The translations under genes and the position numbers were made by a program. A stretch of DNA of 64,000 nt from an uncultured cyanobacterium (GTDB lineage Bacteria; Cyanobacteriota; Cyanobacteriia; Cyanobacteriales; CAWUOF01), in contig CAVUSO010000001.1 of the NCBI GenBank assembly GCA_963744145.1, forward strand, positions 4,346,943 through 4,410,942, in the 5' to 3' direction. Of the stretch, positions 1 to 59,365 are shown in pieces (the stretch's first letter is position 1; every line of letters begins with the position of its first letter). The notes beneath the pieces are model-generated. The model saw only the letters and a list, made by a program, of their open reading frames with translations. It was not told the DNA's origin and searched no databases.

Positions 1-161
1 GGGAACAAGCATACAAGCTAGCAAAAGCCATGAGAAATGCTTCTGCACATGGATTTCTACTACCAAGTAGGATTGGTAAATGGGGATTAAAACATGGATT
101 TCGTAAGTTAACTGATGATTTAGCACTAATTGTTACTGAAGGACTGAGTAAGATTACTTAA
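1..161 (+). CDS. 3' end of an unidentified protein-coding gene (partial, enters from window start)
   Basis: Open frame from position 3 to TAA at 159-161 (EQAYKLAKAMRNASAHGFLLPSRIGKWGLKHGFRKLTDDLALIVTEGLSKIT*). No family recognised. Confidence 0.3.
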   Translation, partial: EQAYKLAKAMRNASAHGFLLPSRIGKWGLKHGFRKLTDDLALIVTEGLSKIT

Positions 162-1835: not shown

Positions 1836-1947
1836 AACCTCATGAACGATGTTCTCACAGGTAAATTGATCTAGCCAATAATTCCCGATCGCATTTTTTG
1901 CTACTATCAAAAACCAATTAAAAATACAATAACAGGAGATTTTTATT

Positions 1948-2517
1948 ATGTCTCTGATGACAGTTAAAGACTTAGAGCAAGTTCAAAGTACACTCTCTGA
2001 GGCGGGTTTAGATTATCAATTAGAATTAGAAAATGGGAGAATTCAAATTGTGGGGCCATCAGATATCGTATCTAGCGAAATTGGGATTCGTCTCAGTGCT
2101 TTTCTGTTTGCCTGGGTCAATCCTCGCCGTCTCGGTCGAGTATTTGACTCCGCAGGTGGTTTTATGATGCCCGATACCAATCTGAAAGCCCCCGATGTTT
2201 CTTTCGTGCGAGCATCCCGTCTGCGCCAAAGTGTGCGTTACTTTGCCGAATTGGTGCCGGATTTGGTGGTGGAAATCAAATCTCAAAGCGATCGCGTCAA
2301 GTCTATAGAAAAGAAAATTCGGAAATTTTTAGAATTGGGAGCTACAGTCGGTATTCTCATCGATCCGGATGAGTTAACTGTTACTGTTTATCGCGATCGC
2401 AGCGAACCGCTTGTGCTAGAAAATGAAGATATCTTAACAGTTCCAGAACTTTTCCCTGGTTGGGAATTACCTCTTAAGGAACTGTGGCCCCCTGTTTTTA
2501 CCGAAGACGAAGTTTAA
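1948..2517 (+). CDS. Uma2 family (DUF820) PD-(D/E)xK-like putative endonuclease
   Basis: 189 aa. Contains ELENGRI, PDVSFV and PDLVVEIKS motifs. Confidence 0.75.
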   Translation: MSLMTVKDLEQVQSTLSEAGLDYQLELENGRIQIVGPSDIVSSEIGIRLSAFLFAWVNPRRLGRVFDSAGGFMMPDTNLKAPDVSFVRASRLRQSVRYFAELVPDLVVEIKSQSDRVKSIEKKIRKFLELGATVGILIDPDELTVTVYRDRSEPLVLENEDILTVPELFPGWELPLKELWPPVFTEDEV

Positions 2518-2743
2518 AGAAATAACTTGGCTGTGTATTTAACTAATTTTTATTATTCCAAAACTAACCAGGATTTAGATAACCCATTACGCGATCCGCT
2601 AAACACTGGAAGTTTGCCCGATTATACAGTAAAATGAATACGCGAGTTTTCTGAAATACCCACAATGCCCAGAAAAGTAATGACTGAACCGCATCCGTCA
2701 GAGTACAATCTAATGGTTAGTTAGACCCCATTCAAGCAATAGG

Positions 2744-3337
2744 ATGGTAAGAAAAATGATCGCAGTAGCAACAGCAACGATAGCAACAGAACCAACAAGA
2801 AAGAAATTCACGGTAGAGGAATATTACAAGCTGGGTGAAGTTGGGATAATTGGACCTGATGAACGGACGGAATTAATTGATGGGGATATCATTCTTATGT
2901 CACCGATGGGACGTCGTCATTTTGGTTTTTTAATTCGACTGAATAGAATTTTTTCCAAGCTTTTTAATGATCGTGCTTTAGTAGCGATACAAGGTCCAGT
3001 CAGACTAAACGGAGAATTACAACCAGAACCCGATCTATTAATTTTGAAACCTTGTGGAGATGATTACATAGAATCAGATATCCAAATCCAAGACATTTAT
3101 TTACTAATTGAAGTAGCGGATACCACTATTAACCATGACCGCAATGTGAAGTCAGTCCTATATGGCAGAGCTGGGATTATTGAGCTTTGGATTGTAGATA
3201 TAAATGCTGAATTAGTAGAGGTGTATCGCAATCCTGGTCCGAACGGTTATGAAAGTATCCAACAATTCAGACGCGGCGAAAGTATCTCACCCCTGGCATT
3301 TCCAGATTTAGTAATTAGTGTTGACGATATTTTGTAG
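2744..3337 (+). CDS. Uma2 family putative endonuclease
   Basis: 197 aa. Contains FTVEEYYKLGEVGII, TELIDGDII and YLLIEVADTT. It is a paralog of 60483..61049. Confidence 0.8.
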   Translation: MVRKMIAVATATIATEPTRKKFTVEEYYKLGEVGIIGPDERTELIDGDIILMSPMGRRHFGFLIRLNRIFSKLFNDRALVAIQGPVRLNGELQPEPDLLILKPCGDDYIESDIQIQDIYLLIEVADTTINHDRNVKSVLYGRAGIIELWIVDINAELVEVYRNPGPNGYESIQQFRRGESISPLAFPDLVISVDDIL

Positions 3338-3358
3338 ACCAATAGTTTCGATTACTAA

Positions 3359-14194: not shown

Positions 14195-14522
14195 AATTAT
14201 TCGCTTTCATTTGGATGAAAATGTTAGCAATGCGATCGCAGAAAGTTTGCGACGACGTGGGGTTGATGTGACAACTACACCATCAGCAGGATTAATGGGC
14301 TGCTCAGATGAAGAACAAATTGCTTTTGCTTTGGAGCAAAATCGGGTTATTTTTACTCAGGATACTGATTTCTTGCGGCTAAATCAAGATGGATTGACTC
14401 ATAATGGTATAGTTTATTGCCAGCAGAATAGTCGATTGATCGGTGAAATTGTGCGAAGTTTAATTTTGATTTGGGAGTATCTAAAACCAGAATATCTGCG
14501 CGGACGGGTTGAATTTATTTGA
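14187..14522 (+). CDS. DUF5615 / PIN-like (Mut7-C type) protein, usual partner of DUF433
   Basis: 8-nt overlap with the DUF433 gene. IRFHLDENV...VIFTQDTDF pattern. Confidence 0.65.
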   Translation: MSEIIRFHLDENVSNAIAESLRRRGVDVTTTPSAGLMGCSDEEQIAFALEQNRVIFTQDTDFLRLNQDGLTHNGIVYCQQNSRLIGEIVRSLILIWEYLKPEYLRGRVEFI

Positions 14523-14572
14523 GGGAGCGATCGTCTGCGATCGCTCGTTTGATTTGGTAAGGACGATCGCTT

Positions 14573-15007
14573 TTACAATATGGTTAAATAAGTATCAATT
14601 GAAGTTTCGGGTAAAACTTTTAATTGCTGATTTTGTAAATCTAATTCAATTCCCAATGCTTCTAAGGGAATCACCCCTAAAAGAGCATCTCGTCCACCAG
14701 GTAATTCTAAACATTCAAAAGTACCTTCTCTCCCACATAAAAATATTTTGGCATCTTGAAAAATTCGGGCTTTGCTAATTCCAGTTGCTGTAGTAACATC
14801 AACTTCTCGCAGCAGTTCTAAACCTAGTTGTGCGATCGCTTCTGGGGGTAAACTCATGGTAGTAGCTCCTGGATCTACTAGCACATTCTTTAGGGTAATC
14901 GAGCGGACTTGCTCGGTCGGAATATAACCGCGTGTTGCAGCAGATTGATCGGATCGGTTTGTAATAGTCAATGTGGTGGTAATTTTGCCCATTTGTTCTG
15001 TAAACAT
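14573..15007 (-). CDS. retropepsin-like (clan AA) aspartic protease, copy 1, active-site triad changed to DPG
   Basis: 144 aa. It has LVDPGATT where copy 2 has LVDTGATT. The C-terminal 100 aa are identical to copy 2. Confidence 0.7.
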   Translation of the reverse strand: MFTEQMGKITTTLTITNRSDQSAATRGYIPTEQVRSITLKNVLVDPGATTMSLPPEAIAQLGLELLREVDVTTATGISKARIFQDAKIFLCGREGTFECLELPGGRDALLGVIPLEALGIELDLQNQQLKVLPETSIDTYLTIL

Positions 15008-15092
15008 GATTTTGAGTTCCCATACTATACCACTATTGTAAGGTGAGAAATTAGAGATGGGGGCGATGTTTTGAGGGAATAGTGCGATCGCT

Positions 15093-15780
15093 ATCTATAC
15101 CGCCTCTATTTTTGTTAAAATAGAATGCGATCCACATTGTGCAAAGTTTAATTTTGATTTGGAAGTATCTAGAACCAGAAGATCTGCGCGGACGAGTTGA
15201 ATTTATTTGAGGGAGCGATCGTCTGCGATCGCTCGTTTGATTTGGTAAGGATGATCGCTTTTACAATATGGTTAAATAGGTATCAATTGAAGTTTCGGGT
15301 AAAACTTTTAATTGCTGATTTTGTAAATCTAATTCAATTCCCAATGCTTCTAAGGGAATCACCCCTAAAAGAGCATCTCGTCCACCCGGTAATTCTAAAC
15401 ATTCAAAAGTACCTTCTCTCCCACATAAAAATATTTTGGCATCTTGAAAAATTCGGGCTTTGCTAATTCCAGTTGCTGTAGTAACATCAACTTCTCGCAG
15501 CAATTCTAAACCCAGTTGTGCGATCGCTTCTGGGGGTAAACAAAGGGTAGTAGCTCCTGTATCTACTAGCACATTCTTTAGGGTAATCGAGCGGACTTGC
15601 TCGGTCGGAATGACCTGCTGATTTGCTAGAATCTGGTCAGCTCGGTTTGTAATAGTCAATGTGGTGGTAATTTTGCCCATCTGTTCGGTAGACATGATTT
15701 TGAGTTCCCATACTATACCACTATTGTAAGGTGAGAAATTAGAGATGGGGGCGATGTTTTGAGGGAATAGTGCGATCGCA
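15093..15780. repeat. tandem duplication unit 2 (DUF433/DUF5615 deleted)
   Basis: The junction CACATTGTGCAAAGTTTAATTTTG joins the equivalents of 13850 and 14447, which share the microhomology GTGCGAA. Confidence 0.85.
15261..15695 (-). CDS. retropepsin-like (clan AA) aspartic protease, copy 2 (DTG intact)
   Basis: VLVDTGATTLCLP catalytic motif. Confidence 0.75.
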   Translation of the reverse strand: MSTEQMGKITTTLTITNRADQILANQQVIPTEQVRSITLKNVLVDTGATTLCLPPEAIAQLGLELLREVDVTTATGISKARIFQDAKIFLCGREGTFECLELPGGRDALLGVIPLEALGIELDLQNQQLKVLPETSIDTYLTIL

Positions 15781-16273
15781 ATTAGAAGCTGATTTTTGGG
15801 ATAATGCTATCATCATTTTACTCTTTAACTATAGATTGATTTCCTAGCGAATTTAATGACAAACTAATATTTAAGGGAAAATTTTTACTCGATCGTTAGA
15901 AATAGAAGCAGCCGTATGGTTGAATGGGATAAAAGTTAGTTGGGTAAATTCCACCCCGATCGCTCAAATTAATTCAGGAATCAATATTGACTTTAATGAT
16001 CTTGTTCTCTAGAATCGTTGATTAATTGGTAAAATGGTAGTTTTAATAATATTCAACCCGAGTAGGACATAATTTGGATACAGTTGATCAACTGTCCCCA
16101 ATCCAATCTTGATCTTTGATTAAATTTGGTTTTTATATGAGAACTCCCATGATAAATATCACAGGAGTGACTCTAGGTTAGTGACAGAGCGATCGACCTG
16201 TGACAAAAATACTGAGGAGATCTCGATCTGATAAATTACTGAAAACTTCTGAATTAAACAGGTATCTATTGAC

Positions 16274-23373: not shown

Positions 23374-23713
23374 CAATACGATCAGTTAAGTGTAGGGGTG
23401 AAGCATTCGGGCGATAATTGAACAATCAAGCTAGTAATATTAGATCCGAATGCTTCACCCTTCTAAAGCGGAGAAGCTCCCAAAAAATTCTTAACTGAAT
23501 ATATTGTAGTATATAGTTGATCTGTTGGCTGCATAGATGTGAGGGCAAAGCATTTCGGTCATATTAATATATAGTTGATCTGTTGGCTGCATAGATGTGA
23601 GGGCAAAGCATTTCGGTCATATTATTCTTCCCTTCGACTACGCTCAGGATAAACGTTTAATCAATTATTTATTCGCCGAAATGCTTTGCCCCTACAGTTA
23701 ACTGAACCGGATT
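23374..23713. mobile_element. composite palindromic MITE, copy 1
   Basis: Ends CAATACGATCAGTTAAGTGTAGGGG ... CCCCTACAGTTAACTGAACCGGATTG. Inside are a GGTGAAGCATTCGG/CCGAATGCTTCACC hairpin, a GGGCAAAGCATTTCGG/CCGAAATGCTTTGCCC hairpin, and a 58-bp internal tandem duplication (23511-23626). Confidence 0.7.
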
Positions 23714-23777: not shown

Positions 23778-25880
23778 ATGAACAATTTACCCTCACCTCC
23801 ACCAGGATTTTCCCAGTTAACTATTCTCCAAAATACCAAAATTAAAAGTAAACCTAGTGATTCATCTCTATTAGCTAATAATGAAAAAGCTGATCTAACT
23901 CAAGGACAGAATTTTTTAATTATCGGTTATGTTTCCGTAGCTGGACATTTTCGAGTTACTCTCAGTGAAGCTATCCCCAATTTTGGCAAAATTGGTTATG
24001 TTTATGCACCTCATGTCCAAATTCAAAAAGATGGTCAAGCGATCGCTTATGATCCTAATGCTGTAACTTTAACCGTCCTCAAAAATGCTACCTTTAAAAA
24101 GCAACCAGTTGACGAAGCAAATCTGACCGATGGAGATAAAACTAATTTCCCCGTTGGGATGATTTATGGAGTATCTGGATATAGTTTTGAATCAGGACAG
24201 CTAAAAGTTTCCCTCACCGAAAATATCCCAAATTTTGGTAATACAGGTTATCTTCAGACTGATGTGGTTCAACTAAATCGAGGTGGTGAAATCTTCAACC
24301 TCACCCCAATCCTAACCTATCGAGGTCCGAAAGAACTTTTTGTCAAACAGCTCACAATTCTTAATGGAACTTTTGACCCCAAACAAGTAACTAATATTTC
24401 CTTAGTCGCTGAAGATAAATATCCTTTGAATGTAAGTTTAAATAAAAAAACAGGGGTTTGGCAAACCATTATAAAGCAAGGTTTTCAAGCTACAGGTGCG
24501 CGGTGGTTACGTTTAAAAGGAGCTAATAGTGCTGGCAAAATTGTGGGTAATCAAGTAATTAAACTGACCGTAATTACAGACAATCAAATAGCTGGTCAAA
24601 ATTTTACCTTAAATATTTTAAAAGATACATTTTTTAAAATCTCACCAAATGATTCTAGCAAACTAAATGACCAACAAAAAGTCTTTGTCAAAGCTGGTCA
24701 AACCTATACTGTCAGTAACTATGGTTACATCGATGGACATCTGAAAATCGCATTAACTAGCTTAATTCCACCTCTGGGAAACTTTGGCTATTTTTATGAA
24801 GGTGATGTCCAACTGAACAAAGGAAATCAAATTTTACGATTTGATATTGAAGATGTACCTAATTCTAATCTGAGCGCTCAGATGTTAGTGACTGAAAAAA
24901 CTCGGATCAAAATTCAGCCGATCGATTCAACCCACCTAGCTGATAATCAAAAAGCTGATTTACTCCAAGGACAAACTTTAGCAATTACTGGTTATGCTTG
25001 TACTCAAGGACATTTTCGAGTTACTTTAGCTGAACCAATACCAGGTTTTGGTAATGTGGGTTATATTTATTGGTTACACGTCCGGATTAAGAAAGATAAT
25101 CAGGTAATCGCTTATGATCCTGATGCGTTAACAGTCACAATTTTACAACCAACAATTTTAAAGAAAAAACCAGTAGATGGTAGTCAATTAAATGATAATG
25201 AAAAAGCAACTATGCCCTTAGGTAGAGTTTATGGATTATCTAGCTATGGAATCGAACAAGGACATATTAAAGTAGCTTTAACTGAACAATTACCACCAAT
25301 TGGTAATACTGGTTATGTTTATCCCAGTTATGTGTTAATGAGACGCGGTGGTACAACGATCAATCCTTATCCCAGTCAAGTAGAGTTAAATGTACCCTAT
25401 TTTTCCCAACGAGATAATCCACGTTTTTATGAGAGTACCTGTAATGTGACATCAATCTCAATGGCATTTTACTATTATGGAGTGCGATCGCAATCAGATG
25501 GACGTTTAGAAGATGAATTATTACAATGGTGTTTGGATAAATATGGTGAAGGTTCCCAAACAGATCATGATGTTTTAAATCAATTAATCTGTGCTTATGG
25601 GTTTAAGACAAGTTTTAGTACAGGTCGTCGTTGGTCAGATGTCACAGAAGAGATCATTAATCGTCGTCCGGTAATTCTTGCGGGTAACTTTACTCCCAGT
25701 GGGCATATAATTTGTGTAGTTGGGTTTACACCGGACGGTTTAATCGTTAATGATCCTTGGGGAGATGCTTTGAGTGGTTATGACGATACAGAAGGTGCGA
25801 AACTACTATATCCTAATAGTTATCTCAATGATGTAGCTGGTCCGGATGGCAATGTCTGGGCACACTTTATTTCCCGTTGA
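23778..25880 (+). CDS. multi-repeat (SH3b-like) protein with C-terminal C39-like/papain-fold peptidase domain
   Basis: Five ~65-aa repeats (K.P.DSS.L....KA.L.QGQ....GY....GHFRVTL.E.IP.FG..GY.Y). The C-terminus has VPYFSQRDN, Cys in STCNVTSISM, His in SGHIICVVGF, and NDPWG. Confidence 0.65.
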   Translation: MNNLPSPPPGFSQLTILQNTKIKSKPSDSSLLANNEKADLTQGQNFLIIGYVSVAGHFRVTLSEAIPNFGKIGYVYAPHVQIQKDGQAIAYDPNAVTLTVLKNATFKKQPVDEANLTDGDKTNFPVGMIYGVSGYSFESGQLKVSLTENIPNFGNTGYLQTDVVQLNRGGEIFNLTPILTYRGPKELFVKQLTILNGTFDPKQVTNISLVAEDKYPLNVSLNKKTGVWQTIIKQGFQATGARWLRLKGANSAGKIVGNQVIKLTVITDNQIAGQNFTLNILKDTFFKISPNDSSKLNDQQKVFVKAGQTYTVSNYGYIDGHLKIALTSLIPPLGNFGYFYEGDVQLNKGNQILRFDIEDVPNSNLSAQMLVTEKTRIKIQPIDSTHLADNQKADLLQGQTLAITGYACTQGHFRVTLAEPIPGFGNVGYIYWLHVRIKKDNQVIAYDPDALTVTILQPTILKKKPVDGSQLNDNEKATMPLGRVYGLSSYGIEQGHIKVALTEQLPPIGNTGYVYPSYVLMRRGGTTINPYPSQVELNVPYFSQRDNPRFYESTCNVTSISMAFYYYGVRSQSDGRLEDELLQWCLDKYGEGSQTDHDVLNQLICAYGFKTSFSTGRRWSDVTEEIINRRPVILAGNFTPSGHIICVVGFTPDGLIVNDPWGDALSGYDDTEGAKLLYPNSYLNDVAGPDGNVWAHFISR

Positions 25881-26076: not shown

Positions 26077-26652
26077 TTATTGTTGCATTGGTTGATTCTT
26101 ATGATCAAGAAATTTGGTGGGATTTTCTGGATCTTCTTCCCATTTTAATGGGTTTTCTTGGATATAAAGTTTAATATTTTCATAGGCGCGATCGCTCCGA
26201 ATAATAGTTTCATAATAATTCCTTTGCCAAATAGTTCCGGAATTTCTAGTAATAGTATTTACCCGTCGCGTCGAAACTGATTTAAAATTTTGGACGATCG
26301 CTCCTAATGAGTCTTTTTTCGTACCATTAGGCATAGAATTTTTTGTTAAATCAGCAGTATGACTATTAATTAAATCAGAATGATCAATCAAGCAAATTAT
26401 GCCATGTAAATGATTAGGCATAACCACGAAATCATCCAGTCTAATTTTAGTAAAATTATTCGGTAAATTTAACCAAACTTCCTGCACTATTTTACCGATA
26501 ACACTAAGGGAAATAATCCCTCCTTTAATCTCACCAAATAAGCAATTTTTTTGAACAGAACAAATTGTCACAAAATAAGCACCAGCGCTGGCATAATCAT
26601 AACGAGGTAAACGAATTGAGCGACGGTGATGAACATCAGGATTATAAGACAT
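26077..26652 (-). CDS. REP-associated tyrosine transposase (RAYT, IS200/IS605 Y1 TnpA-like)
   Basis: 191 aa. HHRRSIRLPRYDYASAGAYFVTICS, HUH-type MPNHLHGII, and WQRNYYETIIR (Tyr motif). Confidence 0.8.
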   Translation of the reverse strand: MSYNPDVHHRRSIRLPRYDYASAGAYFVTICSVQKNCLFGEIKGGIISLSVIGKIVQEVWLNLPNNFTKIRLDDFVVMPNHLHGIICLIDHSDLINSHTADLTKNSMPNGTKKDSLGAIVQNFKSVSTRRVNTITRNSGTIWQRNYYETIIRSDRAYENIKLYIQENPLKWEEDPENPTKFLDHKNQPMQQ

Positions 26653-26693
26653 AAAAAAACATAACCTAAATTTTTCATAATTTTATCCCCTCC

Positions 26694-28039
26694 GTAGGGG
26701 CAAAGCATTTCGGCGCAGAAATTATTGCCTTAACACCGAAAACTATGACCGAAATGCTTTGCCCTCAGCCATACCTGCATCCAACCGATCGACCAAATCA
26801 ACCCATATCTGCATTCAAGCGATCAACTAAATCAACCAATAGTTGGAAAATCGTCGCGGGAGCTGGCCTAATTATTTCCTCCTTAACAATTATCGCGGGG
26901 GCTGGGCGAAGCATTCCCCAATTAAATTTATCCATGACCTGATCAGTGATCGTGGGGAATGCTTCGCCCCTACGGCGATCGCCCTTCTTTTCCATCAACC
27001 TAAAACAGAATTTGAGCCGTCTTTGTAGGGGCAAAGCATTTCGGCGCAGAAATCATGACTTTAACCCCGAAAATTATGACCGAAATGCTTTGCCCTCAGC
27101 CAGGTCTGCATCCAACCGATCGACCAAATCAACCCATATCTGCATCCAACCGATCGACCAAATCAACCCATATCTGCATTCAAGCGATCGACCAAATCAA
27201 CCCATATCTGCATCCAATCGATCGACCAAATCAACCCATATCTGCATTCAAGCGATCAACTAAATCAACCAATAGTTGGAAAATCGTCGCGGGAGCTGGC
27301 CTAATTATTTCCTCCTTAACAATTATCGCGGGGGCTGGGCGAAGCATTCCCCAATTAAATTTATCCATGACCTGATTAGTGATCGTGGGGAATGCTTCGC
27401 CCCTACGGCGATCGCCCTTCTTTTCCATCAACCTAAAACAGAATTTGAGCCGTCTTTGTAGGGGCAAAGCATTTCGGCGAAAAAATCATGACTTTAACGC
27501 CGAAAATTATGACCGAAATGCTTTGCCCTCAGCCAGGTCTGCATCCAACCGATCGACCAAATCAACCCATATCTGCATCCAATCGATCGACCAAATCAAC
27601 CCATATCTGCATTCAAGCGATCAACTAAATCAACCAATAGTTGGAAAATCGTCGCGGGAGCTGGCCTAATTATTTCCTCCTTAACAATTATCGCGGGGGC
27701 TGGGCGAAGCATTCCCCAATTAAATTTATCCATGACCTGATCAGTGATCGTGGGGAATGCTTCGCCCCTACGGCGATCGCCCTTCTTTTCCATCAACCTA
27801 AAACAGAATTTGAGCCGTCTTTGTAGGGGCAAAGCATTTCGGCGCAGAAATCATGACTTTAACGCCGAAAATTATGACCGAAATGCTTTGCCCTCAGCCA
27901 GGTCTGCATCCAACCGATCGACCAAATCAACCCATATCTGCATCCAACCGATCGACCAAATCAACCCATATCTGCATCCAACCGATCGACCAAATCAACC
28001 CATATCTGCATCCAATCGATCGACCAAATCAACCAACAG
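26694..28039. repeat. nested repeat array: 4 higher-order units (331, 433, 365 and a partial 217 bp), each holding 2, 5, 3 and 4 copies of a 34-bp tandem repeat
   Basis: Each unit has three parts. Hairpin A is GGGGCAAAGCATTTCGGCG...CCGAAATGCTTTGCCC. The 34-mer is CTGCATCCAACCGATCGACCAAATCAACCCATAT repeated n times. Hairpin B is GGGCGAAGCATTCCCC-N34-GGGGAATGCTTCGCCC. Unit starts are 26694, 27025, 27458 and 27823. Confidence 0.9.
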
Positions 28040-28096
28040 TTTTAGAATTATAGCGTGGTATAATCAGGATAAATTCACTCGATCGAAGACAGAACT

Positions 28097-32199: not shown

Positions 32200-32460
32200 C
32201 AATCCGGTTCAGTTAACTGTAGGGGTGAAGCATTCGGGCGATAATTGAACAATCAAGCCAGTAACATTATATCCGAATGCTTCACCCTTCTTCTGCGCCG
32301 AGATATCAAAAACATTCTTAACTGAATGTATTTTAATGTATAGTTGATCTGTTGGCTGCATAGATATGAGGGCAAAGCATTTCGGTAATATTATTCTTCG
32401 CTTAAGCTATCATTTATTTGCCGAAATGCTTTGCCCCTACAAGTTAACTGAATCGGATTG
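32200..32460. mobile_element. composite palindromic MITE, copy 2
   Basis: CAATCCGGTTCAGTTAACTGTAGGGG ... CCCCTACAAGTTAACTGAATCGGATTG, with the same two internal hairpins as copy 1. Confidence 0.75.
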
Positions 32461-32484: not shown

Positions 32485-34539
32485 TTATTCACTCAAACTT
32501 TCTTGTAGCATCCGACCAGCCGCATCTAACAAGACCTCTTCTAAATAAGGTTTAGTAAAGTAACCACTTGCTCCTAATTCTATTGCCATTTGTCGATGTT
32601 TATCAGCACCCCGGGAAGTTAACATCGCGATCGGTAATTTACCTAATACCGGATCATTCTGAAGACGAGATAATAATTCTAACCCATCCATTCGAGGCAT
32701 TTCTATATCACAGAATACCAGATCACAATTTAGTCCTGAGCGCAGTTTTTCCCAAGCTTCTTGACCATTTCGAGCTTGTTCCACTCGATACCCAGCTTTA
32801 TTAAAAGTCATCGATAACATTTCCCGGACTGTAATAGAATCATCCACAACTAAAACAGTAGGATTAGTCGGATTCTCATCAATCATAGAAACTATCTGAT
32901 CTTGATTCCAACTCCAACGATCTTCACGACGAATCCGTCCTAGAGCTAAATCAATCAGTTCTAAAACATCTGCGATCGGCACAATTTGACCATCCCCCAT
33001 TACCGTAGCACCTACAATTCCCAAGGGTTTAGGTACTGGACCTTCAAGTTGTTTAATAACTATTTCTTTTTCTCCTAAAAACTGATCAACTTGAACCGCG
33101 AGCAAAGTTTCAGCATTGCGTAAAATCACGATCGATATTTTATCATCGTTATTGCTACTCCAATAACCGCGACCGAAAGGACGATGATAAGTCAGGAGTT
33201 CTTTCAGTGGTCGAAAAGGGAGTTCTCGATCGCGCCAAAAAATACAGGTTTTACCTTCAGAATTAACTTTAATCTGAGTTGGGGGAATCTTCATCATATC
33301 TTCTACCCCATCAATTGGAAAAGCAATCTGAGCTTTGTCACTGATACAATAAAGCACTTTAGAAATATTAAAGGTAAGAGGTAGTCGAATCGTAAAAGTA
33401 GTACCTTGACCAGGAGTAGAATCTGTATGAATTACCCCACGTAATTCATGCACATCTTCTCGGACTACATTCATCCCCATTCCACGACCAGAAATTAAAT
33501 CTACTTCATCATTGGTACTAAATTCTGGATAGAATAACAGCTCATAAATATCCAAACGAGACATAATATGTGCTTGTTCAGGTGTAATTAATTCCTGTTT
33601 AATTGCTTTTACTTTTACTCGTTCTAGATCAATACCCGCTCCATCATCAGTACAGGAAATTACAGTTTGGTTCCCTTGATAACCAGCGCGAATCGTAATC
33701 CGACCTTTAGGGGGTTTTCCTTGTTGCTTTCTAATCTCTGGTAATTCAATCCCATGCGCGATCGCATTATTAACTAAGTGAGTTAATGAAGCGGAAAGCT
33801 CTTCGAGGATCATCTTATCAATTAAGGTATCTTCACCTTCAATTTGCAATTCGATTTGTTTTCCCTTTCGCTCCGCAATTTCCTGACAACCGAGTTTTAA
33901 TTTACTCGAGATTTGGGAAAAAGGTTGCATTCGCGATCGGGTTAATCCTTCTTGGAGTTGGGTAGTTACTTGTCGGAGTTGTTTACTTACCTGATCAGAA
34001 CCATCTACTAAAAACTCAATATCAGCAGCAGATTCTCGCACTCTGACCATTAATTCAATAATTTCCTGAGATAAACTATGAAATGGTGTAAATCGATCCA
34101 TTTCTAACACATCCCATTGGTCAGATTGATGACTAACTTCTTTCTGACTCCAACGATTTTTTTCAGGTTGAGATATGAGGTGACGTCCGGTTTTGCGACT
34201 TGACAATAAGGAAGTTTCTAACAGCGATCGCTCATACAAATCTTGCATTCTTTGGGAAACATCACTGAGCTGACTGACCTGAATCAATAAATTATCTAAA
34301 AACTGTCTTAACCTTTCCTGATCCTGTTCTAAACTATTACGATTAACTACCAACTCCCCAACTAAGTTGCTCATGTTATCCAATTGTTTAATTGGCACTC
34401 TCATGATCTGGTCATTCAGCTTTTTCTTTTTCGGTGCTGGTAATAAACAGCGTCGATAGAGTTGATTTTTTAAGTTACCTTCATCAATCAAATTTTCCAG
34501 ATCATCCCATTGACTCTCATCAGTTTGGTTATTAGTCAT
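32485..34539 (-). CDS. Hpt-less CheA-like hybrid kinase (dimerisation, HATPase, CheW-like, REC)
   Basis: 684 aa, collinear with and highly similar to residues ~940-1632 of the upstream 1632-aa CheA. Motifs HLVNNAIAHGIE, DDGAGID and GRGMGMNVV, plus a C-terminal REC (VLVVDDSITVRE...DIEMPRMDG). There is no HSxKG Hpt motif. Confidence 0.8.
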   Translation of the reverse strand: MTNNQTDESQWDDLENLIDEGNLKNQLYRRCLLPAPKKKKLNDQIMRVPIKQLDNMSNLVGELVVNRNSLEQDQERLRQFLDNLLIQVSQLSDVSQRMQDLYERSLLETSLLSSRKTGRHLISQPEKNRWSQKEVSHQSDQWDVLEMDRFTPFHSLSQEIIELMVRVRESAADIEFLVDGSDQVSKQLRQVTTQLQEGLTRSRMQPFSQISSKLKLGCQEIAERKGKQIELQIEGEDTLIDKMILEELSASLTHLVNNAIAHGIELPEIRKQQGKPPKGRITIRAGYQGNQTVISCTDDGAGIDLERVKVKAIKQELITPEQAHIMSRLDIYELLFYPEFSTNDEVDLISGRGMGMNVVREDVHELRGVIHTDSTPGQGTTFTIRLPLTFNISKVLYCISDKAQIAFPIDGVEDMMKIPPTQIKVNSEGKTCIFWRDRELPFRPLKELLTYHRPFGRGYWSSNNDDKISIVILRNAETLLAVQVDQFLGEKEIVIKQLEGPVPKPLGIVGATVMGDGQIVPIADVLELIDLALGRIRREDRWSWNQDQIVSMIDENPTNPTVLVVDDSITVREMLSMTFNKAGYRVEQARNGQEAWEKLRSGLNCDLVFCDIEMPRMDGLELLSRLQNDPVLGKLPIAMLTSRGADKHRQMAIELGASGYFTKPYLEEVLLDAAGRMLQESLSE

Positions 34540-34650
34540 AGTTATGCAATCCCTGAAATCTCTGGGTTATGTAGATGATTATTTTGGAACAAAGGGATCA
34601 GATGTCAGGGAAATTACACCTTCAATCAGATCCCCCAGACCTGACACCGA

Positions 34651-37600
34651 TTAAGTTGCACTAGCACTACCTACTAATACTTCACCCTTAAGCATCCGAC
34701 TCGCTGCGTCTAATAAAGCTTCTTCTAAATAAGGTTTAGTAAAGTAGCCATTAGCTCCCATTTGAATTGCCATTTGTCGATGTTTGTCTGCACCACGGGA
34801 AGTTAACATCGCGATCGGTAATTCACTGAGTTGAGGATCTTTCTGGAGACGAGATAATAATTCCAATCCATCCATCCGAGGCATTTCAATATCGCAGAAT
34901 ACTATGTCACAAGGTAGTCCGGAGCGCAGTTTTTCCCAAGCTTCTTGACCATCACGCGCTTGTTCGACTCGATATCCAGCTTTATTAAATGTCATTGACA
35001 GTAGCTCACGCACGGTAATCGAATCATCGACAATTAATACTGTTGGTTCAGCTTTGTGATCTTCCGCGGCTTCGCTCTGCATTTGGATGTGATCTTGTTC
35101 CCACATCCGTCGATCTTCACGACGAATTCGTCCGAGAGCTAAATCAATTAATTCCAATACATCTGCGATCGGTACAATTCGACCATCCCCCATCACCGTA
35201 GCACCAGCAATTCCGACTGGTTTCGGTACGGGACCTTCAAGTTGTTTAATTACGATTTCTTGTTCCCCCATCGCTTGATCCACTTGGACCGCCAGAAAGG
35301 TGCCAGCACTTCGCAACACAATCACATCAATAGTCTCTTCATCATTGCTAGCGCCCCCATAAATACTACCCCGACCAATATAGCGATTATAAGCTAGTAG
35401 TTCTTTCAGTGGTTGGAACGGCATTTGTTGATCGCGCCAAGGAATACAAGGTTGATTTTCCGCATTCACCTTAATCCGTTCCTTGCTAATTTTGATGATA
35501 TCTTCTACCCCATCCATCGGGAAAGCAATCCGCGCTTTATCACTGATACAACATAGAGCTTTAGAAATACTTAGGGTTAAAGGAAGACGGATCGTAAACG
35601 TAGTACCTTTACCCATCGTCGAGTCAGTATTAATTACCCCACGAATCTTATTCACGTTATCTAAGACTACATTCATCCCCACCCCACGACCGGAAATAGA
35701 ATTTACCTCATCATTGGTACTAAATCCCGGATGGAAAAGAATGTCATATACATCTAAACGAGACATGGTTTTTGCTTGTTCGGGGGTAATTAGTCTCTTT
35801 TCCATAGCTTTAACTTTTACCCGCTCGATATCAATCCCAGCACCATCATCAGAAAATGCGATTACGGTTTGGTTACCTTGGTGGAAAGCTCGAATTGTAA
35901 TTCGACCTATAGGGGGTTTTCCTTTCGCAACTCGTGCTTCTGGGGGTTCAATCCCGTGAGCGATCGCATTATTCATTAAGTGAGTCAATGGATCGGTCAG
36001 TTTCTCCAGGATCATCTTATCAATTAAAGTATCTTTCCCTTCAATTCTTAACTCGGCTTGTTTCCCATTTTCCCCAGCTACTTTCCGACAACCCCGCTCT
36101 AACATATTCGAGATTTGCATAAATGGTTCCATCCGCGATCGGGTTAAACCTTCTTGGAGTTGAGTTGTTACCTGTCGGAGTTGTCGAGTTACTTGATCTG
36201 CTTCATCCACTAAAAATTCAATATCTGCTGCTGATTCCCGGACTCTGACCATTAATTCGATAATTTCTTGAGATAAACTATGAAATGGTGTAAACCGATC
36301 CATTTCTAGCACGTCCCAATCTGAACCGTGATTTCCTGCTGCTTCTTGATTACTATTACTTTTTTCTCCACGAAATGCAGGTCCACGGGGAGCTTTCCGA
36401 CTTGCTAATAGGGAAATTTCTAATAGCGATCGCTCATATAAATCTTGCATTCTTTGGGACACATCACTGAGCTGACTGACCTGAACCAGTAAGTTATCTA
36501 AAAATTGCCTTAAACGTTCCTGATCTTGTTCTAAACTATTGCGGTTGACTACTAACTCCCCAACTAAGTTGCTCATATTATCCAACTGTTTCACGGGGAC
36601 TTTCATAATCTGTTCATTGAACTGTTTGTTCGGACGTGCTTGAGCCGATCGCGGTCTTCCTTGTACTTTCGTTTCACCCCGTTCATCCAGTAATTTTTCC
36701 ATATCACCCCATTCATTCTGATCAGCTTTTGGTTTAGCTGTGGTGGTGATTACTGGTGTTGCTTGCTCAGTTTTCGGTTTAACTGTTTCTTTTGCTCTCG
36801 TAGTTTCTCGGTTGCTGGTGGTGGATTTTTCCACACCTAATAATTTTTCTAATTCAGCAAATATATTGCTGTCAACAGGTTGATTTGCTAACAGTGCTTC
36901 TAATTCGGCAAATTGTGCCCCATTTAATTCTTTTTCAGAATCAATAGTCAGATGGAGCGATTCGGAACTAACATCTACAGGTTGATCAATATCCAATTCG
37001 CTACTAATCAGATCATCTAAGGAAATCTCTGCTGTTTGCTCAGGTAAAACTAACTCATCCTGGTGGGGAAATTCCCATAAATCTGCTCCCATTTCTGTGG
37101 GAGTATCAGTTAACCAATTGTCTGGTAATTCACTGGTTTCTTGTCCAGCAAATAAATCGTCAATCTGATCAGCAAAATTCAGAGTTAGCTCCGGTTCGGA
37201 CTCATCACTTTCTTCCTGCGGTTCATCAAAATCAAAGAAGCTATCTGTCAAACTTTCATCAGCTCCCAAATCGACAGCAAATAGATCATCGACTGCTAGT
37301 TCGGATGATATTTCTGTACTATTTTCATTCTCAAACTCTATTAATTCCAAACTTGAGGGTGATTCACTTTCTAGCGATGTTTCTGGGAAAAAGGAAAAAT
37401 CTGCTTCCGGTTCTGGGGTGGGATTGGTTTGGGCTGAATCGGATATTTCCCAGCTAAATAAATCATTTAATTCTGATTTATCCTCGGTTTCTTCTGTTAA
37501 TTCCAACCAGCTTAAATCCTTACTTTCTTGCTCTTGAGTATCTTCTAACCAATTTTCTGAAGCATCTATTTGGTCAATTTCCAGAGCAATTTCATCTTGG

Positions 37601-39549
37601 TTATCTTCCGTTAAATCTAATGAACTTAGGGCAGATTTTTCTGATTTTTCCGGACCACTGATTTCCAACAGTTCACTAAAATCTTGATCATCATCATCCG
37701 GAATACTTTCAATCGCTTCATTTAGAGAATTATCTCCAAATAAATCATCTGTTTCCCAGGAATTTACTAATTCTTCATCAGTTGAATTAGCATTTATTTC
37801 TGGTTCATCTGTCCATAGACCTTGCCAATTATTTTCACCGTTTGCACTGTCCTGATTTTCTAGCTCTAATTGACCAAAGCTATCATTATTTGCTGTTACC
37901 TCATCAGCAAACAAAGGTTCCTCTTCTGCTAAATCAGCAAATAATTGATTTAAAGGAGCTGAGTCAATTACCGTGTTTAAATCCTCTGAATTACTCTCTA
38001 ATTCTGACCATAAAATATTTTCTTCTTCCTGGGAATTTTCCGGCTCTGTCTCGATATCTAAAAGTGATAAATCTCCGAAATCTAATAACTCCGACTGGGT
38101 GTCGGTGAGATTTTCTAAATTTAAGTTTGGCTGTTGTTCTTCTGATTCAAGCATAAAATCCTCGTCAAACAAACTGGTTAATTCATCACTGGTTAGTTCT
38201 GGAGATACAGCGGATTGATTTAAACTATTTTCATCAAATAATAAATCAGCAAACTCATGATTAGCATCAAATTCGATTCCATCTTTTAAATCTAATTGTT
38301 GAGCCGTTTCCACCCTACTTTCTTCGGTCGTTTGTCGGTGATCTAGTTCTTCTGTTTCACTCCCAAATAAACTACTTAACGCATTGAGAACATCCATTTC
38401 CACTTCCGGTACTGCTGGATGTTCGTGTCTTTGGTTGACCTGGCTTTTTTCTGACGGTTGACCTAGTAATTCCATCTCTTTTCCATTTGCTAGTTCTAAA
38501 TCTAAATTTATTTTATTTTCTTCATAATTGACAATTTCATTTCCAAATAGATCAAGGCTATCTGGTGCCAAAAAGTCCTGATTTGGGGATTCATTCATAA
38601 ATGTTAATGTAGATGACTCTTCGTTTGATGGCATAAATTCAAGTAAGTCCTCAAAATTTAGATCCTCTGCTTCCGGCTCCCTATTTATTTCTGGGGGAAC
38701 TAGTTCTTGTAGTTGGGAGCTTTCTGATATTTCTGTCCAGCGACCAGCTAACACTAACTCTTGAGCTTGTTTAATATCTTGGAACACTGCTACTGCGATC
38801 GTCCGGTAGGTTTTTTCTTGATTCCCGATCGCTTTTTTCACAGTTTCCATTAAGTTTACCCATTGAGGAATTTCAAATTGCTCCCCAAATTGGTTTAAAG
38901 TATCACATATTTCTTGTAAGTGTTCTCTAGTATCGGTATTATCTGTTTGTTTAAACAGTTGCAACATCTCTCGTAATGCTTGGGTGACATCACTGCGAAA
39001 GATCAATTGGAGTGCACTCTCTTCTCCATATTCCGTTATTCTTTTACTCAGGTTAGTTTCTGCAACTAACTGAGCTGGTTTGGTTGAGCTAGATTTTTCA
39101 TTTTTGGTCGATTTCTGAGTCGATGGGGTTTTGACCAACGAATGGAGATGACTGACTAGCTCTTGTAAAACTGGTTCTACTTCGGTCAGTTTTTGGTTAG
39201 CTAACTCTTCACTCAGACCAAACTGACTTGCTAGTTGATCTACTAATTCTTGCAGAGTATCAAAAACTTGTAAAAATAGAGATTCTAGTCTTTGGTCTAC
39301 TTTAACTGGTTCTTCTTTGAGGATGCGAAAACAATCTTCTAAACTATGAGAAATAGCTTGAATACTTTTAATTCCCAACATCGCGGCTCCACCTTTGACT
39401 GAGTGGGCCGCTCGAAACACCTCATTCGCCATTTCTGGCTCTTCTAAGATGCTTTGGAGGTTGAGTAGACCTTGTTCGATCGTATTGAGATGATCTTTTG
39501 CTTCGTCAATAAAATATTTAGTAATTCTATCTTGCTCATCCGGTAACAT
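34651..39549 (-). CDS. hmpE: hybrid CheA histidine kinase of the Hmp/PilL type
   Basis: N-terminal Hpt (FRAAHSVKGGAAMLG), a ~650-aa acidic low-complexity linker, then CheA dimerisation/HATPase/CheW-like/REC. Confidence 0.85.
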   Translation of the reverse strand: MLPDEQDRITKYFIDEAKDHLNTIEQGLLNLQSILEEPEMANEVFRAAHSVKGGAAMLGIKSIQAISHSLEDCFRILKEEPVKVDQRLESLFLQVFDTLQELVDQLASQFGLSEELANQKLTEVEPVLQELVSHLHSLVKTPSTQKSTKNEKSSSTKPAQLVAETNLSKRITEYGEESALQLIFRSDVTQALREMLQLFKQTDNTDTREHLQEICDTLNQFGEQFEIPQWVNLMETVKKAIGNQEKTYRTIAVAVFQDIKQAQELVLAGRWTEISESSQLQELVPPEINREPEAEDLNFEDLLEFMPSNEESSTLTFMNESPNQDFLAPDSLDLFGNEIVNYEENKINLDLELANGKEMELLGQPSEKSQVNQRHEHPAVPEVEMDVLNALSSLFGSETEELDHRQTTEESRVETAQQLDLKDGIEFDANHEFADLLFDENSLNQSAVSPELTSDELTSLFDEDFMLESEEQQPNLNLENLTDTQSELLDFGDLSLLDIETEPENSQEEENILWSELESNSEDLNTVIDSAPLNQLFADLAEEEPLFADEVTANNDSFGQLELENQDSANGENNWQGLWTDEPEINANSTDEELVNSWETDDLFGDNSLNEAIESIPDDDDQDFSELLEISGPEKSEKSALSSLDLTEDNQDEIALEIDQIDASENWLEDTQEQESKDLSWLELTEETEDKSELNDLFSWEISDSAQTNPTPEPEADFSFFPETSLESESPSSLELIEFENENSTEISSELAVDDLFAVDLGADESLTDSFFDFDEPQEESDESEPELTLNFADQIDDLFAGQETSELPDNWLTDTPTEMGADLWEFPHQDELVLPEQTAEISLDDLISSELDIDQPVDVSSESLHLTIDSEKELNGAQFAELEALLANQPVDSNIFAELEKLLGVEKSTTSNRETTRAKETVKPKTEQATPVITTTAKPKADQNEWGDMEKLLDERGETKVQGRPRSAQARPNKQFNEQIMKVPVKQLDNMSNLVGELVVNRNSLEQDQERLRQFLDNLLVQVSQLSDVSQRMQDLYERSLLEISLLASRKAPRGPAFRGEKSNSNQEAAGNHGSDWDVLEMDRFTPFHSLSQEIIELMVRVRESAADIEFLVDEADQVTRQLRQVTTQLQEGLTRSRMEPFMQISNMLERGCRKVAGENGKQAELRIEGKDTLIDKMILEKLTDPLTHLMNNAIAHGIEPPEARVAKGKPPIGRITIRAFHQGNQTVIAFSDDGAGIDIERVKVKAMEKRLITPEQAKTMSRLDVYDILFHPGFSTNDEVNSISGRGVGMNVVLDNVNKIRGVINTDSTMGKGTTFTIRLPLTLSISKALCCISDKARIAFPMDGVEDIIKISKERIKVNAENQPCIPWRDQQMPFQPLKELLAYNRYIGRGSIYGGASNDEETIDVIVLRSAGTFLAVQVDQAMGEQEIVIKQLEGPVPKPVGIAGATVMGDGRIVPIADVLELIDLALGRIRREDRRMWEQDHIQMQSEAAEDHKAEPTVLIVDDSITVRELLSMTFNKAGYRVEQARDGQEAWEKLRSGLPCDIVFCDIEMPRMDGLELLSRLQKDPQLSELPIAMLTSRGADKHRQMAIQMGANGYFTKPYLEEALLDAASRMLKGEVLVGSASAT

Positions 39550-58965: not shown

Positions 58966-59365
58966 CAATACAGTTCAGTTAACCGTAGGGGCAAAGCATT
59001 TCGGCGAATAAATGATTGCTTAAACGTTTACCCTGAGCGTAGTCGAAGGGAAGAATAATATTACCGAAATGCTTTGCCCTTACCATCTATGCAGCCAACA
59101 GATAAACTAGATATTACAATCCATTCAGTTAAGGATTTTTTGGGATATCTCGACGAAGAAGGGCGAAGCATTCGGATATAATATTACTGCCCTTCGACTA
59201 CGCCCCCTTCGACTACGCTCAGGGCAAGCTTCGACTACGCTCAGGGCAAGCTTCGACTACGCTCAGGGTAAACTCAGGGTAAAGTTTGATTGTTCAATTG
59301 TCGCCCGAATGCTATGCCTCCGGCACGCTACGCGAACGCCCCTACAATTAACTGAACCGTATTAC
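58966..59365. mobile_element. composite palindromic MITE, copy 3 (inverted relative to copies 1 and 2)
   Basis: CAATACAGTTCAGTTAACCGTAGGGG ... CCCCTACAATTAACTGAACCGTATT. It carries about three tandem copies of the 22-mer CTTCGACTACGCTCAGGGCAAG (59190-59280). Confidence 0.7.

Follow-up and report, generated by a model that had tools for sequence, protein, structure and literature searches.

The locus at positions 26077 to 28039 of the 64-kb stretch of cyanobacterial DNA analysed here (the window) is a REPtron of the ordinary sort: a domesticated transposase gene whose product binds hairpins lies beside a tandem cluster of its own palindromic repeats. Both the cluster and the 34-bp run inside it most likely arose by unequal recombination between two neighbouring repeat copies. 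We put the probability at roughly three in four that the locus is a REPtron with a BIME-like cluster whose array grew by homology-driven unequal exchange between X copies, where X denotes hairpin A with its run of 34-mers and Y denotes a spacer, the inverted hairpin B and a further spacer. Letters a, b, c, y and z name variants of the 34-mer in the features below.

26077..26652 (-): RAYT/TnpA_REP gene, 191 aa, subclass 2.4-like, with NHLH (HUH), WQ and YIQENP motifs
26653..26693 (-): leader, from the RAYT ATG to the CTAC/GTAG foot of the first hairpin, 41 nt
26694..28039 (+): whole nested array, structure (XY)3X, 1,346 bp
26694..26764 (+): hairpin A of unit 1 (X-left), a long GTAG REP with inner stem TTTCGG; diverged, RAYT-proximal
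26775..26842 (+): 34-mer run 1, a z (2 copies)
26843..27024 (+): Y copy 1, 182 bp: spacer 1, inverted hairpin B at 26904-26973, spacer 2
27025..27095 (+): hairpin A of unit 2
27106..27275 (+): 34-mer run 2, a a b c z (5 copies)
27276..27457 (+): Y copy 2, with hairpin B at 27337-27406 (GTAG on the minus strand)
27458..27528 (+): hairpin A of unit 3
27539..27640 (+): 34-mer run 3, a c z (3 copies)
27641..27822 (+): Y copy 3, with hairpin B at 27702-27771 (GTAG on the minus strand)
27823..27893 (+): hairpin A of unit 4 (X-right)
27904..28039 (+): 34-mer run 4, a a a y (4 copies); end of array

The transposase gene encodes a cyanobacterial RAYT

The initial annotation identified the gene product as a RAYT-type Y1 transposase, an assignment upheld by profile matches, fold matches and invariant HUH and tyrosine residues. 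The NCBIfam model REP_Tyr_transpos matches the 191-aa protein with 59.4 bits (E 3.4e-16), below the cut-off of 80 of this model, which was built mainly on the proteobacterial equivalog, and Pfam Y1_Tnp matches it with a significant E-value at 20.1 bits, below a cut-off of 23. Lying under both curated cut-offs (Pfam and NCBIfam), the protein is, judged by its sequence, a divergent family member. A total of 7,986 homologues were found, many of which bear the name RayT. The profile of the RAYT homologues has 4ER8 as its best PDB match (E 8.6e-5), and the same structure is the best fold match of the AF2 model (E 2.3e-6), followed by IS200/IS608/ISDra2. His81, His83 and Tyr163 do not vary among 29 homologues, and in the alignment they match the HUH motif and the Tyr115 region of 4ER8. 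We assign the protein to RAYT/TnpA_REP, in cyanobacterial subclass 2.4 (Bertels group 4); if it acts like E. coli TnpA_REP, it would bind the single-stranded GTAG hairpin. The window holds one RAYT copy, and the exact protein was found on one genome contig. An IS200/IS605 insertion sequence was considered and rejected, given that the hairpins are one-sided, A and B are inverted and the gene is single-copy in the window.

The array had been placed 42 bp from the RAYT start codon; in agreement with this, the first GTAG lies at 26694, with 41 nt between. Together with the dispersed copies of hairpin A described below, this position gives the REP adjacency by which a RAYT is recognised. A CTAC-ended hairpin also lies 14-74 nt upstream of the RAYT ATG at four other loci (L002, L003, L004 and L014). 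No REP was found on the 3′ side of the gene, where most homologues differ in having one, and no REP arm was found inside the RAYT ORF (26077-26652). REP insertions inside the RAYT gene are present in L005, L011-L014 and most of the best 120 homologue matches, and REPs within the RAYT ORF of homologues have already been published (Quentin 2018, PMC6006769). Similar neighbouring gene lengths raised the possibility of synteny between the window and L003 and L004. This was rejected: the neighbours are unrelated by tblastn, and these are therefore independent RAYT loci rather than orthologous positions.

Hairpins A and B are long GTAG REPs, and A is dispersed

Hairpin A had been described as REPIN-like; A and B both form perfect 16-17 bp stems, with fold energies from -18.6 to -22.3 kcal/mol and z from -3.9 to -5.5 (unit-1 hairpin A: -18.6 kcal/mol, z -3.9). 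The GTAG arm reads GTAGGGGCAAAGCATTTCGG in A and GTAGGGGCGAAGCATTCCCC in B, and the two hairpins are inverted relative to each other. REPs 70-72 nt long, with GTAG at the 5′ end and a GGG/CCC foot, occur in the window and beside five homologous RAYTs; the REPs of this locus read GTAG plus GGGC...GCCC. The outer stem is the same in all 26 REP copies compared, which come from 6 sources, while the inner stem covaries: 99.5 % of cells are paired, compensatory changes occur at 6 of the 16 pairs, and none of 500 shuffles reaches the observed score. The REP core has 22 matches in the window against 0.05 expected. Palindromic, multicopy and extragenic, with an unpaired 5′ GTAG, hairpins A and B have the make-up of GTAG-tagged REPs or REPINs and are canonical long GTAG REPs (~71 nt) of the RAYT family.

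The initial annotation made its reading depend on the hairpins also occurring elsewhere. Outside the array, hairpin A is present at three other loci in the 64 kb (at 23.5, 32.4 and 59.0 kb), so that the reading is not refuted on this count. Within the window, hairpin B is confined to the array, and no further copy of the Y segment was found outside it. The exact GTAG arm of hairpin A has only 3 matches in species-representative genomes, in two Oscillatoriales, too small a number for a picture at genome scale. The dispersed elements are as follows.

23503..23695 (-): dispersed REP-A element; 95-nt hairpin with a perfect 58-bp x2 repeat of the non-GTAG arm and flank module (duplication at 23510-23624)
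32330..32440 (-): dispersed REP-A element with flank module TATGCAGCCAACAGATCAAC; 78 % identity to array unit positions 1-97 by blastn (E 4e-17)
58985..59130 (+): dispersed REP-A element; 95-nt hairpin with flank module

The array nests a minisatellite derived from a REP flank

The dimensions first given for the array hold on recounting. Measured from one GTAG to the next, the first three units span 331, 433 and 365 bp, and a partial unit of 217 bp closes the array at 28039; direct counting gives 2, 5, 3 and 4 copies of the 34-mer; and, with a constant part of 263 bp, the units vary in length by whole multiples of 34. As had also been noted, runs 1-3 close on the identical variant, CTGCATTCAAGCGATCAACTAAATCAACCAATAG, and run 4 terminates in CTGCATCCAATCGATCGACCAAATCAACCAACAG. 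TRF independently detects repeats with periods of 34, 365 and 433 (91-98 % match). The Y copies mutually differ at 0-1 of 182 sites, and hairpin A of unit 1 differs from those of units 2-4 at 9-11 of 78. Spacer 1 of Y copy 1 holds a vestigial non-GTAG arm flank, ATCGTCGCGGGAGCTGGCC. The REPs thus stand in tandem with conserved linkers or flanks, as in a BIME or an ordered REPIN cluster. A CRISPR array was rejected, since no spacers separate the 34-mers, and what could pass for ‘spacers’ at the higher level is itself repeated. Weak similarities of the RAYT leader to spacer 2 (p 0.02) and of the right flank of the array to spacer 1 (p 0.05) were not used.

The 34-mer has 10 matches in the window against 0 expected. 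The flank module of the dispersed REP-A elements is TGCAGCCAACAGATCAAC, and the alignment of array unit positions 1-97 to the dispersed copies extends 19 nt into the 34-mer. None of 2000 shuffles reaches the score of the flank module against the 34-mer dimer, and the flank-module pattern has 12 matches against 0.06 expected, 11 of which are dispersed-element flanks or 34-mers. We count this homology as established; on these alignments, the 34-mer derives from the module that flanks dispersed REP copies on the non-GTAG side. Its variant b is an exact z/a chimera (positions 1 to 11-16 of z followed by a), and variant c consists of positions 1-29 of y followed by a. Copy number varies between the paralogous runs (2/5/3/4) within one genome. 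Scans with the 34-mer core gave 0 matches in the genome collection and 1 in the metagenome collection, a chance match in unrelated 50 % GC coding DNA; the searched collections therefore yield no other arrays and no strain comparison.

Hybrid units point to unequal exchange between X copies

Between the first and last X copies (X1 and X4), 9 of the 81 head sites differ. The internal copies, X2 and X3, are X4-like at 8-9 of these 9 head sites and X1-like at all 5 diagnostic sites of the terminal 34-mer, and are thus hybrids whose head matches the right-hand X and whose tail matches the left-hand X. Copies at the array edges are diverged, and those in the interior are homogenised. As far as sequence comparison can tell, the hybrid X copies and the z/a chimera b are the signature of homology-driven unequal exchange or slippage. 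The earlier suggestion of amplification by replication slippage gains support in this broader form, as slippage or unequal exchange, from the hybrid internal units and chimeric 34-mers. The hybrid structure places the junctions in the 34-mer run and is compatible with RecA-type exchange, replication slippage or RAYT cut-and-join; a recombination mechanism of array growth is what we infer.

We propose that the REPtron belongs to a filamentous (Oscillatoriales-type) cyanobacterium and comprises a single RAYT/TnpA_REP gene with a BIME-like cluster directly upstream, and that its array would not have grown by repeated insertion. Two direct-orientation REP-A elements, each an X made of hairpin A and its 3′ flank module, would at the start have flanked a Y with an inverted REP-B. 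Homology-driven unequal exchange between both X copies, by unequal crossing-over or by template switching/slippage and with crossover sites inside the flank module, would then have converted X-Y-X to (XY)3X. The flank module would itself have turned into a 34-bp minisatellite and, because it had done so, misaligned exchanges could have produced the copy numbers 2, 5, 3 and 4. The array is most likely a neutral by-product of REP density beside the RAYT.

Alternative explanations

The RAYT could instead have catalysed local amplification by binding the single-stranded GTAG hairpin, cleaving the linker on its non-GTAG side and adding units by strand transfer, which would yield both the higher-order array and the 34-mer run, as in the BIME model of Ton-Hoang 2012. 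TnpA_REP cleaves C|T in iREPs and linkers, and strand transfer could build tandem BIMEs (PMC3333891); here, each 34-mer contains exactly one CT, placed at the unit junction. Tandem amplification on the non-GTAG side also recurs beside independent RAYTs and REPs of the family (L014, L003 and 23510-23624), and the amplified modules are mutually homologous, although the 34-mer is linked to the L014 and L003 inner repeats only transitively, via the window’s flank module (direct similarity was not significant). The breakpoint of chimera b, however, falls between 34-mer positions 11 and 17 (CGATC), with CT on neither strand, so that event did not take place at a 34-mer unit junction. In addition, 182 bp of non-REP spacer was co-amplified at 99-100 % identity, and the internal units show the hybrid structure expected from homologous exchange. 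We therefore consider catalysis by the RAYT unlikely, and are equally doubtful that subclass-2.4 RAYTs themselves generate non-GTAG-side tandem amplifications of long REPs by linker cleavage and strand transfer. The same hybrids of X-left and X-right, which are not identical insertions, make it highly improbable that each A...B unit is a composite non-autonomous transposon, with A and B as IS200/IS605 LE/RE-like ends, that repeatedly inserted next to itself. Two different hairpins do bound each unit, and Y1 transposases do act on subterminal hairpins, but of the unit only A plus its flank recurs elsewhere in the 64 kb, Y (spacers and B) being confined to the array, and the two hairpins are mutually inverted, unlike LE and RE.

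The array length of 1,346 bp rests on one assembly. The junction of the RAYT gene with hairpin A is confirmed by L001, an independent short-read contig that then breaks inside unit-1 hairpin A, and the collections searched hold no second assembly or sister strain, as might be the case if the nesting or the copy numbers came from a mis-assembled shorter repeat. Such an artefact is nevertheless very unlikely: individual units have differences of their own (in the loop of unit 1, at one SNP of hairpin B in unit 2 and in the order of the 34-mer variants) that collapse or expansion errors normally do not create, the 7.63 Mb length of the source contig suggests long reads, and similar arrays occur in independent megabase-scale assemblies (L014). 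There is also little to commend a functional non-coding or small-protein locus, whether a tandem sRNA array, iteron- or centromere-like binding sites or a repeat protein. The units do contain recurring ORFs of 61-118 aa, yet 34 is not a multiple of 3 and the array ORFs match no public gene call; coding potential was rejected with these ORFs absent from all gene calls. The 34-mer has a 17-nt half-periodicity, but its run lacks significant structure (z -1.3), and Rfam, permissive scan included, gave nothing at the gathering threshold and only meaningless hairpin matches (E 0.1-0.2). The last 34-mer supplies the -35-like hexamer of a promoter-like site upstream of a 104-aa gene, whereas such sites are fewer than in shuffles (3 versus 7.5). 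The 34-mer is absent from all other searched genomes and metagenomes and is therefore not conserved, and we regard a function of this kind as most improbable.

Implications

The locus extends the REPtron/BIME picture by a well-resolved example from the cyanobacteria. Its diagnostic sites would reveal how a REP cluster grows, with two direct-orientation dispersed REPs seeding an unequal-exchange array and crossovers falling in a flank-derived minisatellite, and they suggest that REP clusters beside RAYTs need not record transposase activity. Nested REP loci of this kind break short-read assemblies and could serve in strain typing. The amplification of one homologous module beside several RAYTs of the family is a small lead that would make the RAYT-driven model testable in cyanobacteria. 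If that model were true, the 34-mer run, the 58-bp x2 duplication, the 59-bp repeat of L003 and the 58-bp x12.7 repeat of L014 would be four arrays sharing one homologous module, TGCAG.CAACAGAT.AAC, and would be natural in-vivo RAYT footprints. RAYT activity in vivo has never been directly observed, and such footprints would record it.

Comparison with known systems

The initial annotation took the array to be unusual on the grounds that known RAYT loci carry only simple REP or REPIN copies. This is contradicted by published clusters and by the nested or tandem arrays that adjoin homologous RAYTs in L003 (59 bp x3.1/1.9 inside 262/302-bp units), L004 and L014 (58 bp x12.7). Ordered tandem REPIN clusters with flanks, beside each RAYT, and alternating two-type arrays were described by Bertels & Rainey 2011 (PMC3116915), tandem BIMEs that are homogeneous within a locus and vary in number, together with a model of amplification by TnpA_REP, by Ton-Hoang 2012 (PMC3333891), and tandemly reiterated dimers including flanking DNA by Di Nocera 2013 (PMC3733652). 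The array belongs to a known kind, which it illustrates clearly, and does not constitute a new one.

Like a REPtron, a tnpA_REP/RAYT flanked by REP/BIME (Ton-Hoang 2012), the locus has a single Y1/HUH gene directly beside 5′ GTAG hairpins that are also dispersed, and its tandem copies are highly homogeneous. REPtrons were reportedly also described by Nunvar et al. in 2010. The present locus differs in that REPs lie only 5′ of the gene, the hairpins are ~71 nt (‘long REP’) rather than ~35 nt, and one linker contains a 34-bp minisatellite. Subclass 2.4 is defined by NH[IFV]H, WQ and YIxNNP motifs and by long REPs with a 5′ GT[AG]G and a foot of three G-C pairs (Quentin 2018, PMC6006769). Our protein is likewise cyanobacterial, has NHxH, WQ and YIxxNP, and is accompanied by canonical long REPs with a 5′ GT[AG]G and three stem-foot G-C pairs; its NHLH departs from the published I/F/V at that position, a minor deviation that leaves the assignment in place. 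The 191-aa protein and its closest relatives also lack the in-gene REP insertion typical of the subclass, a feature that is predominant but not universal.

The REPIN clusters and GI-GIII arrays of Pseudomonas fluorescens SBW25 similarly place near-identical hairpins and flanks in tandem beside each RAYT, with two REP types alternating at fixed spacing (Bertels & Rainey 2011). That spacing is reported as 112/72 bp, whereas in the present array one spacer changes length in whole 34-bp steps and REPs of the two types are oppositely oriented. E. coli BIME-2 also consists of alternating-orientation REPs with specific linkers in tandem, and its copy number varies between loci and strains, but its REPs differ in sequence and size. 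BIME-2 linkers are short and are not known to be tandem repeats themselves. With bacterial minisatellites and VNTRs, the 34-mer runs share head-to-tail 34-bp units, diverged edges, chimeric variants and copy-number differences between paralogous runs; they are set apart by being nested in a higher-order REP array and derived from a REP flank module.

RAYT motifs and hairpins

The window's RAYT scores under the curated cut-offs of two profiles (Pfam Y1_Tnp, 20.1 bits against 23; NCBIfam REP_Tyr_transpos, 59.4 bits, E 3.4e-16, against 80) and has ~8,000 homologues, for the most part cyanobacterial, many of which are called RayT by their source databases; the nearest named ones are from Microcoleus. 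H81 and H83 of the HUH motif and Y163 are unchanged throughout an alignment of 29 homologues. A profile of RAYT homologues finds E. coli TnpA_REP as its top match in the PDB (4ER8, E 8.6e-5), with the HUH and Tyr regions aligned, and an AlphaFold model (pLDDT 76.5) also matches 4ER8 best, followed by IS200/IS608/ISDra2 transposases. The motifs NHLH, WQ and YIQENP agree with those of subclass 2.4 in Quentin et al. 2018 (group 4 of Bertels), which is plentiful in cyanobacteria. REPs of that subclass, termed “canonical long”, are hairpins that carry a 5′ GT[AG]G and close at the foot with three G-C pairs (PMC6006769). In more distant homologues, the RAYT ORF contains an entire in-frame GTAG REP hairpin, its arms translating as (C)RGEAF...TNASPF, at these loci in other sequences:

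L005, 2630-2700
L011, 5290-5360
L012, 5335-5405
L013, 5284-5351
L014, 5285-5349

Quentin 2018 (PMC6006769) had already described this in-gene hairpin as the hallmark of the subclass. A GEAF-type motif occurs in ~90 of the best 120 RAYT homologues; the window's RAYT lacks it.

Each hairpin has two arms, GTAG and non-GTAG, and B is oriented opposite to A. The same design, 70-72 nt long, recurs directly beside RAYT homologues in L002, L003, L004 and L014, and in another two Oscillatoriales genomes. Across 26 aligned hairpins, the outer 11 bp of the stem (GGGCRAAGCAT) are essentially invariant, and the inner 5 bp vary by subtype with complementarity kept (TTTCGG, TTCCCC, TTGGCC, GACCC, GAGGG, TCCGG). 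Pairing holds in 99.5% of cells, double-sided changes occur at 6 of 16 pairs, and the covariation score was reached by none of 500 shuffles. Folding as single-stranded DNA gives hairpins A and B perfect stems of 16-17 bp (z -3.9 to -5.5) and the 34-mer run no significant structure (z -1.3). Further copies of hairpin A at 23.5, 32.4 and 59.0 kb of the window make it a dispersed REP, as the initial annotation's reading required. Within the 64-kb window hairpin B is limited to the array, and hairpins of its type (TTCCCC) flank both closest RAYT homologues.

Anatomy of the array

26077-26652, minus strand: RAYT ORF, 191 aa (ORF calling)
26694: start (GTAG) of the first hairpin A, 41 nt upstream of the RAYT ATG

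In-register dissection resolves four hairpins A, each of 71 nt, whose successive GTAGs lie 331, 433 and 365 bp apart; the last unit is partial (217 bp) and ends at 28039. Hairpin A is followed by a 10-nt linker and a spacerless run of 34-mers (2, 5, 3 and 4 copies in units 1-4) and, in units 1-3 only, by a 61-nt spacer, the 70-nt hairpin B and a 51-nt spacer. With 263 bp held constant in every full unit, the lengths vary only by exact multiples of 34. TRF, run independently, recovers the same periods, and pattern searches of the window return 22 REP cores (0.05 expected) and 10 34-mers (0 expected). The initial annotation's description of the array held up in all details checked. The short-read contig L001 independently confirms the RAYT-hairpin A junction; it breaks in the unit-1 hairpin A, at most 3 nt from the first base setting unit 1 apart from the others.

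A promoter-like site (TCGACC-17-TAGAAT, 28020-28048), whose -35 hexamer is part of the last 34-mer copy, lies 49 nt upstream of a 104-aa coiled-coil gene; such sites are not enriched in the array region (3 vs 7.5 in shuffles). On the other side, a 700-aa neighbour (23778-25880) carries a C39-like/papain-like peptidase domain at its C terminus and internally repeated N-terminal modules (23943-24067 / 25008-25132). It has no relative at 90% identity in the protein collection, where the proteins flanking the array are singletons at that level.

Origin of the 34-mer

Dispersed REP-A copies carry a flank module (...CATATCTATGCAGCCAACAGATCAACTATA...) after their non-GTAG arm. Array unit positions 1-97, comprising hairpin A and the first 19 nt of the 34-mer, match these copies by blastn (E 4e-17); the remainder of the unit has no other copy within the 64-kb window. 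The module aligns over the 34-mer junction (CATATC--TGCATCCAACCGATCGAC) with a score reached by 0 of 2000 shuffles, and its pattern, allowing up to 3 mismatches, occurs 12 times in the window (0.06 expected), 11 of these being 34-mers or flanks of dispersed elements. Together, these three comparisons show that the 34-mer arose by internal duplication of part of the 3′ flank belonging to the REP element itself. Its core has no match among species-representative genomes and one, by chance, in a metagenome collection, and by this measure is private to the window's lineage. The 34-mer includes the HIP1 core CGATCG; the HIP1 octamer GCGATCGC has 71 copies in the 64-kb window (GC 40%), a signature of cyanobacterial origin.

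Two small tandem repeats accompany the dispersed elements:

23510-23624: perfect 58-bp x2 duplication within a dispersed REP-A element, taking in its non-GTAG arm and flank module; the peptidase gene separates it from the RAYT, 2.5 kb away
59207-59268: perfect 22-bp x2.8 array of a second repeat, CTTCGACTACGCTCAGG(GCAAG)

Of the three dispersed REP-A hairpins, two also have the second repeat as a ~24-nt insertion in their loops (23632-23648, 59032-59048) and are thus 95 nt rather than 71 nt long. Nested mobile repeats of very small size, which this repeat resembles, are reported from cyanobacteria by Elhai et al. 2008. A larger common element, with direct TTCAGTTAA motifs as its boundaries, encloses the dispersed hairpins; two copies (23382-23566 and 32209-32393, with ends ..TTCAGTTAAC / ..ATTCAGTTAAG) have an extra ~130 nt in common at 88% identity. 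All three dispersed copies are directly downstream of plus-strand genes.

Elsewhere in the window, a ~2.2 kb tandem duplication (32507-36630, 78-86% identity) runs through large minus-strand ORFs (32485-34539, 34651-39549), which could represent either paralogous genes or a protein with repeated domains. A 688-bp tandem duplication (14448-15782, 95-97% identity) carries two 144-aa minus-strand ORFs, and 1677-3338 resembles 59902-61050, 57.7-58.2 kb away, at 70-83% identity, taking in ~190-aa ORFs (2744-3337, 60471-61049).

Growth of the array

With X denoting GTAG-hairpin A, linker and 34-mer run, and Y denoting spacer 1, hairpin B and spacer 2, the array reads X1-Y-X2-Y-X3-Y-X4. Among the three copies of Y, differences amount to 0-1 of 182 sites. 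X1 is distinguished from X4 by 9 of 81 head sites and by 5 sites of the terminal 34-mer (variants z and y). Internal X2 and X3 have heads that are X4-like at 8-9 of the 9 diagnostic sites and terminal 34-mers that are X1-like at 5/5. In a precursor, two direct-orientation REP-A elements (X-left and X-right) would have stood on either side of a single Y; unequal exchange between them, with the crossover within the 34-mer run, would have amplified the interval, and the hybrid X2/X3 pattern is exactly the product to be expected of it. The internal 34-mer variants are chimeric too: b is exactly z from position 1 to 11-16 followed by the canonical variant a, and c is y[1..29]+a[30..34].

The RAYT itself may also have contributed to the amplification. 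The breakpoint interval of variant b, however, has CT on neither strand, which argues against C|T cleavage of the E. coli type in that case. Given the hybrid internal X copies, the chimeric 34-mers and this breakpoint, homology-driven exchange or slippage is the best-supported mechanism, in line with the slippage-type amplification suggested in the initial annotation; array growth by unequal exchange would be legible in the sequence itself.

Related loci and published REP clusters

Tandem arrays occur at 4 of 10 examined loci of this RAYT family (the window, L003, L004 and L014):

L003, 1122-1997: nested array downstream of a RAYT that shares 74% identity with that of the window
L014, 4129-4886: 58 bp x12.7 (99% match), beginning at a GTAG arm and ending 115 nt upstream of the RAYT ATG

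L003 has units of 262/302 bp, with periods of 321 and 361 also present, a 59-bp inner repeat of variable copy number (3.1 and 1.9) and two oppositely oriented hairpin subtypes. L004 carries 104-bp x2 repeats on both sides. The L014 unit consists of loop, non-GTAG arm and flank, in near-perfect copies after a single GTAG arm, so that one 5′ arm faces ~12 alternative 3′ arms; its last copy is diverged, like the edge copies of the window's array. Full-length homology links the inner repeats of L014 and L003, and 21 of 25 positions agree between the L014 unit and the flank module of the window (p about 3e-4). Because of these arrays, the 58-bp x2 duplication in the window and the homologous modules, we conclude that nested or tandem architecture is a recurring property of this REP family.

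Published clusters are of the same kind. REPINs occur in ordered tandem with their flanks included, all three SBW25 RAYTs have an adjoining cluster, and GI and GIII alternate in arrays of up to 12 copies per REP type (Bertels & Rainey 2011, PMC3116915). GTAG REP families occur in cyanobacteria, and large clusters are tandemly reiterated dimers with flanking DNA (Di Nocera et al. 2013, PMC3733652). Ton-Hoang et al. 2012 (PMC3333891) defined the REPtron, described tandem BIMEs as uniform within a locus and variable in number, and proposed amplification by TnpA_REP. Set against these clusters and the arrays at 4 of 10 related loci, the initial premise that a higher-order array is unusual does not hold. 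In the library searched, no paper ties REPIN/RAYT to a minisatellite; as a feature the nested 34-mer is minor, if undocumented, and no new element type. The window locus is a subclass 2.4 REPtron with a BIME-like REP cluster, a real feature of known type.
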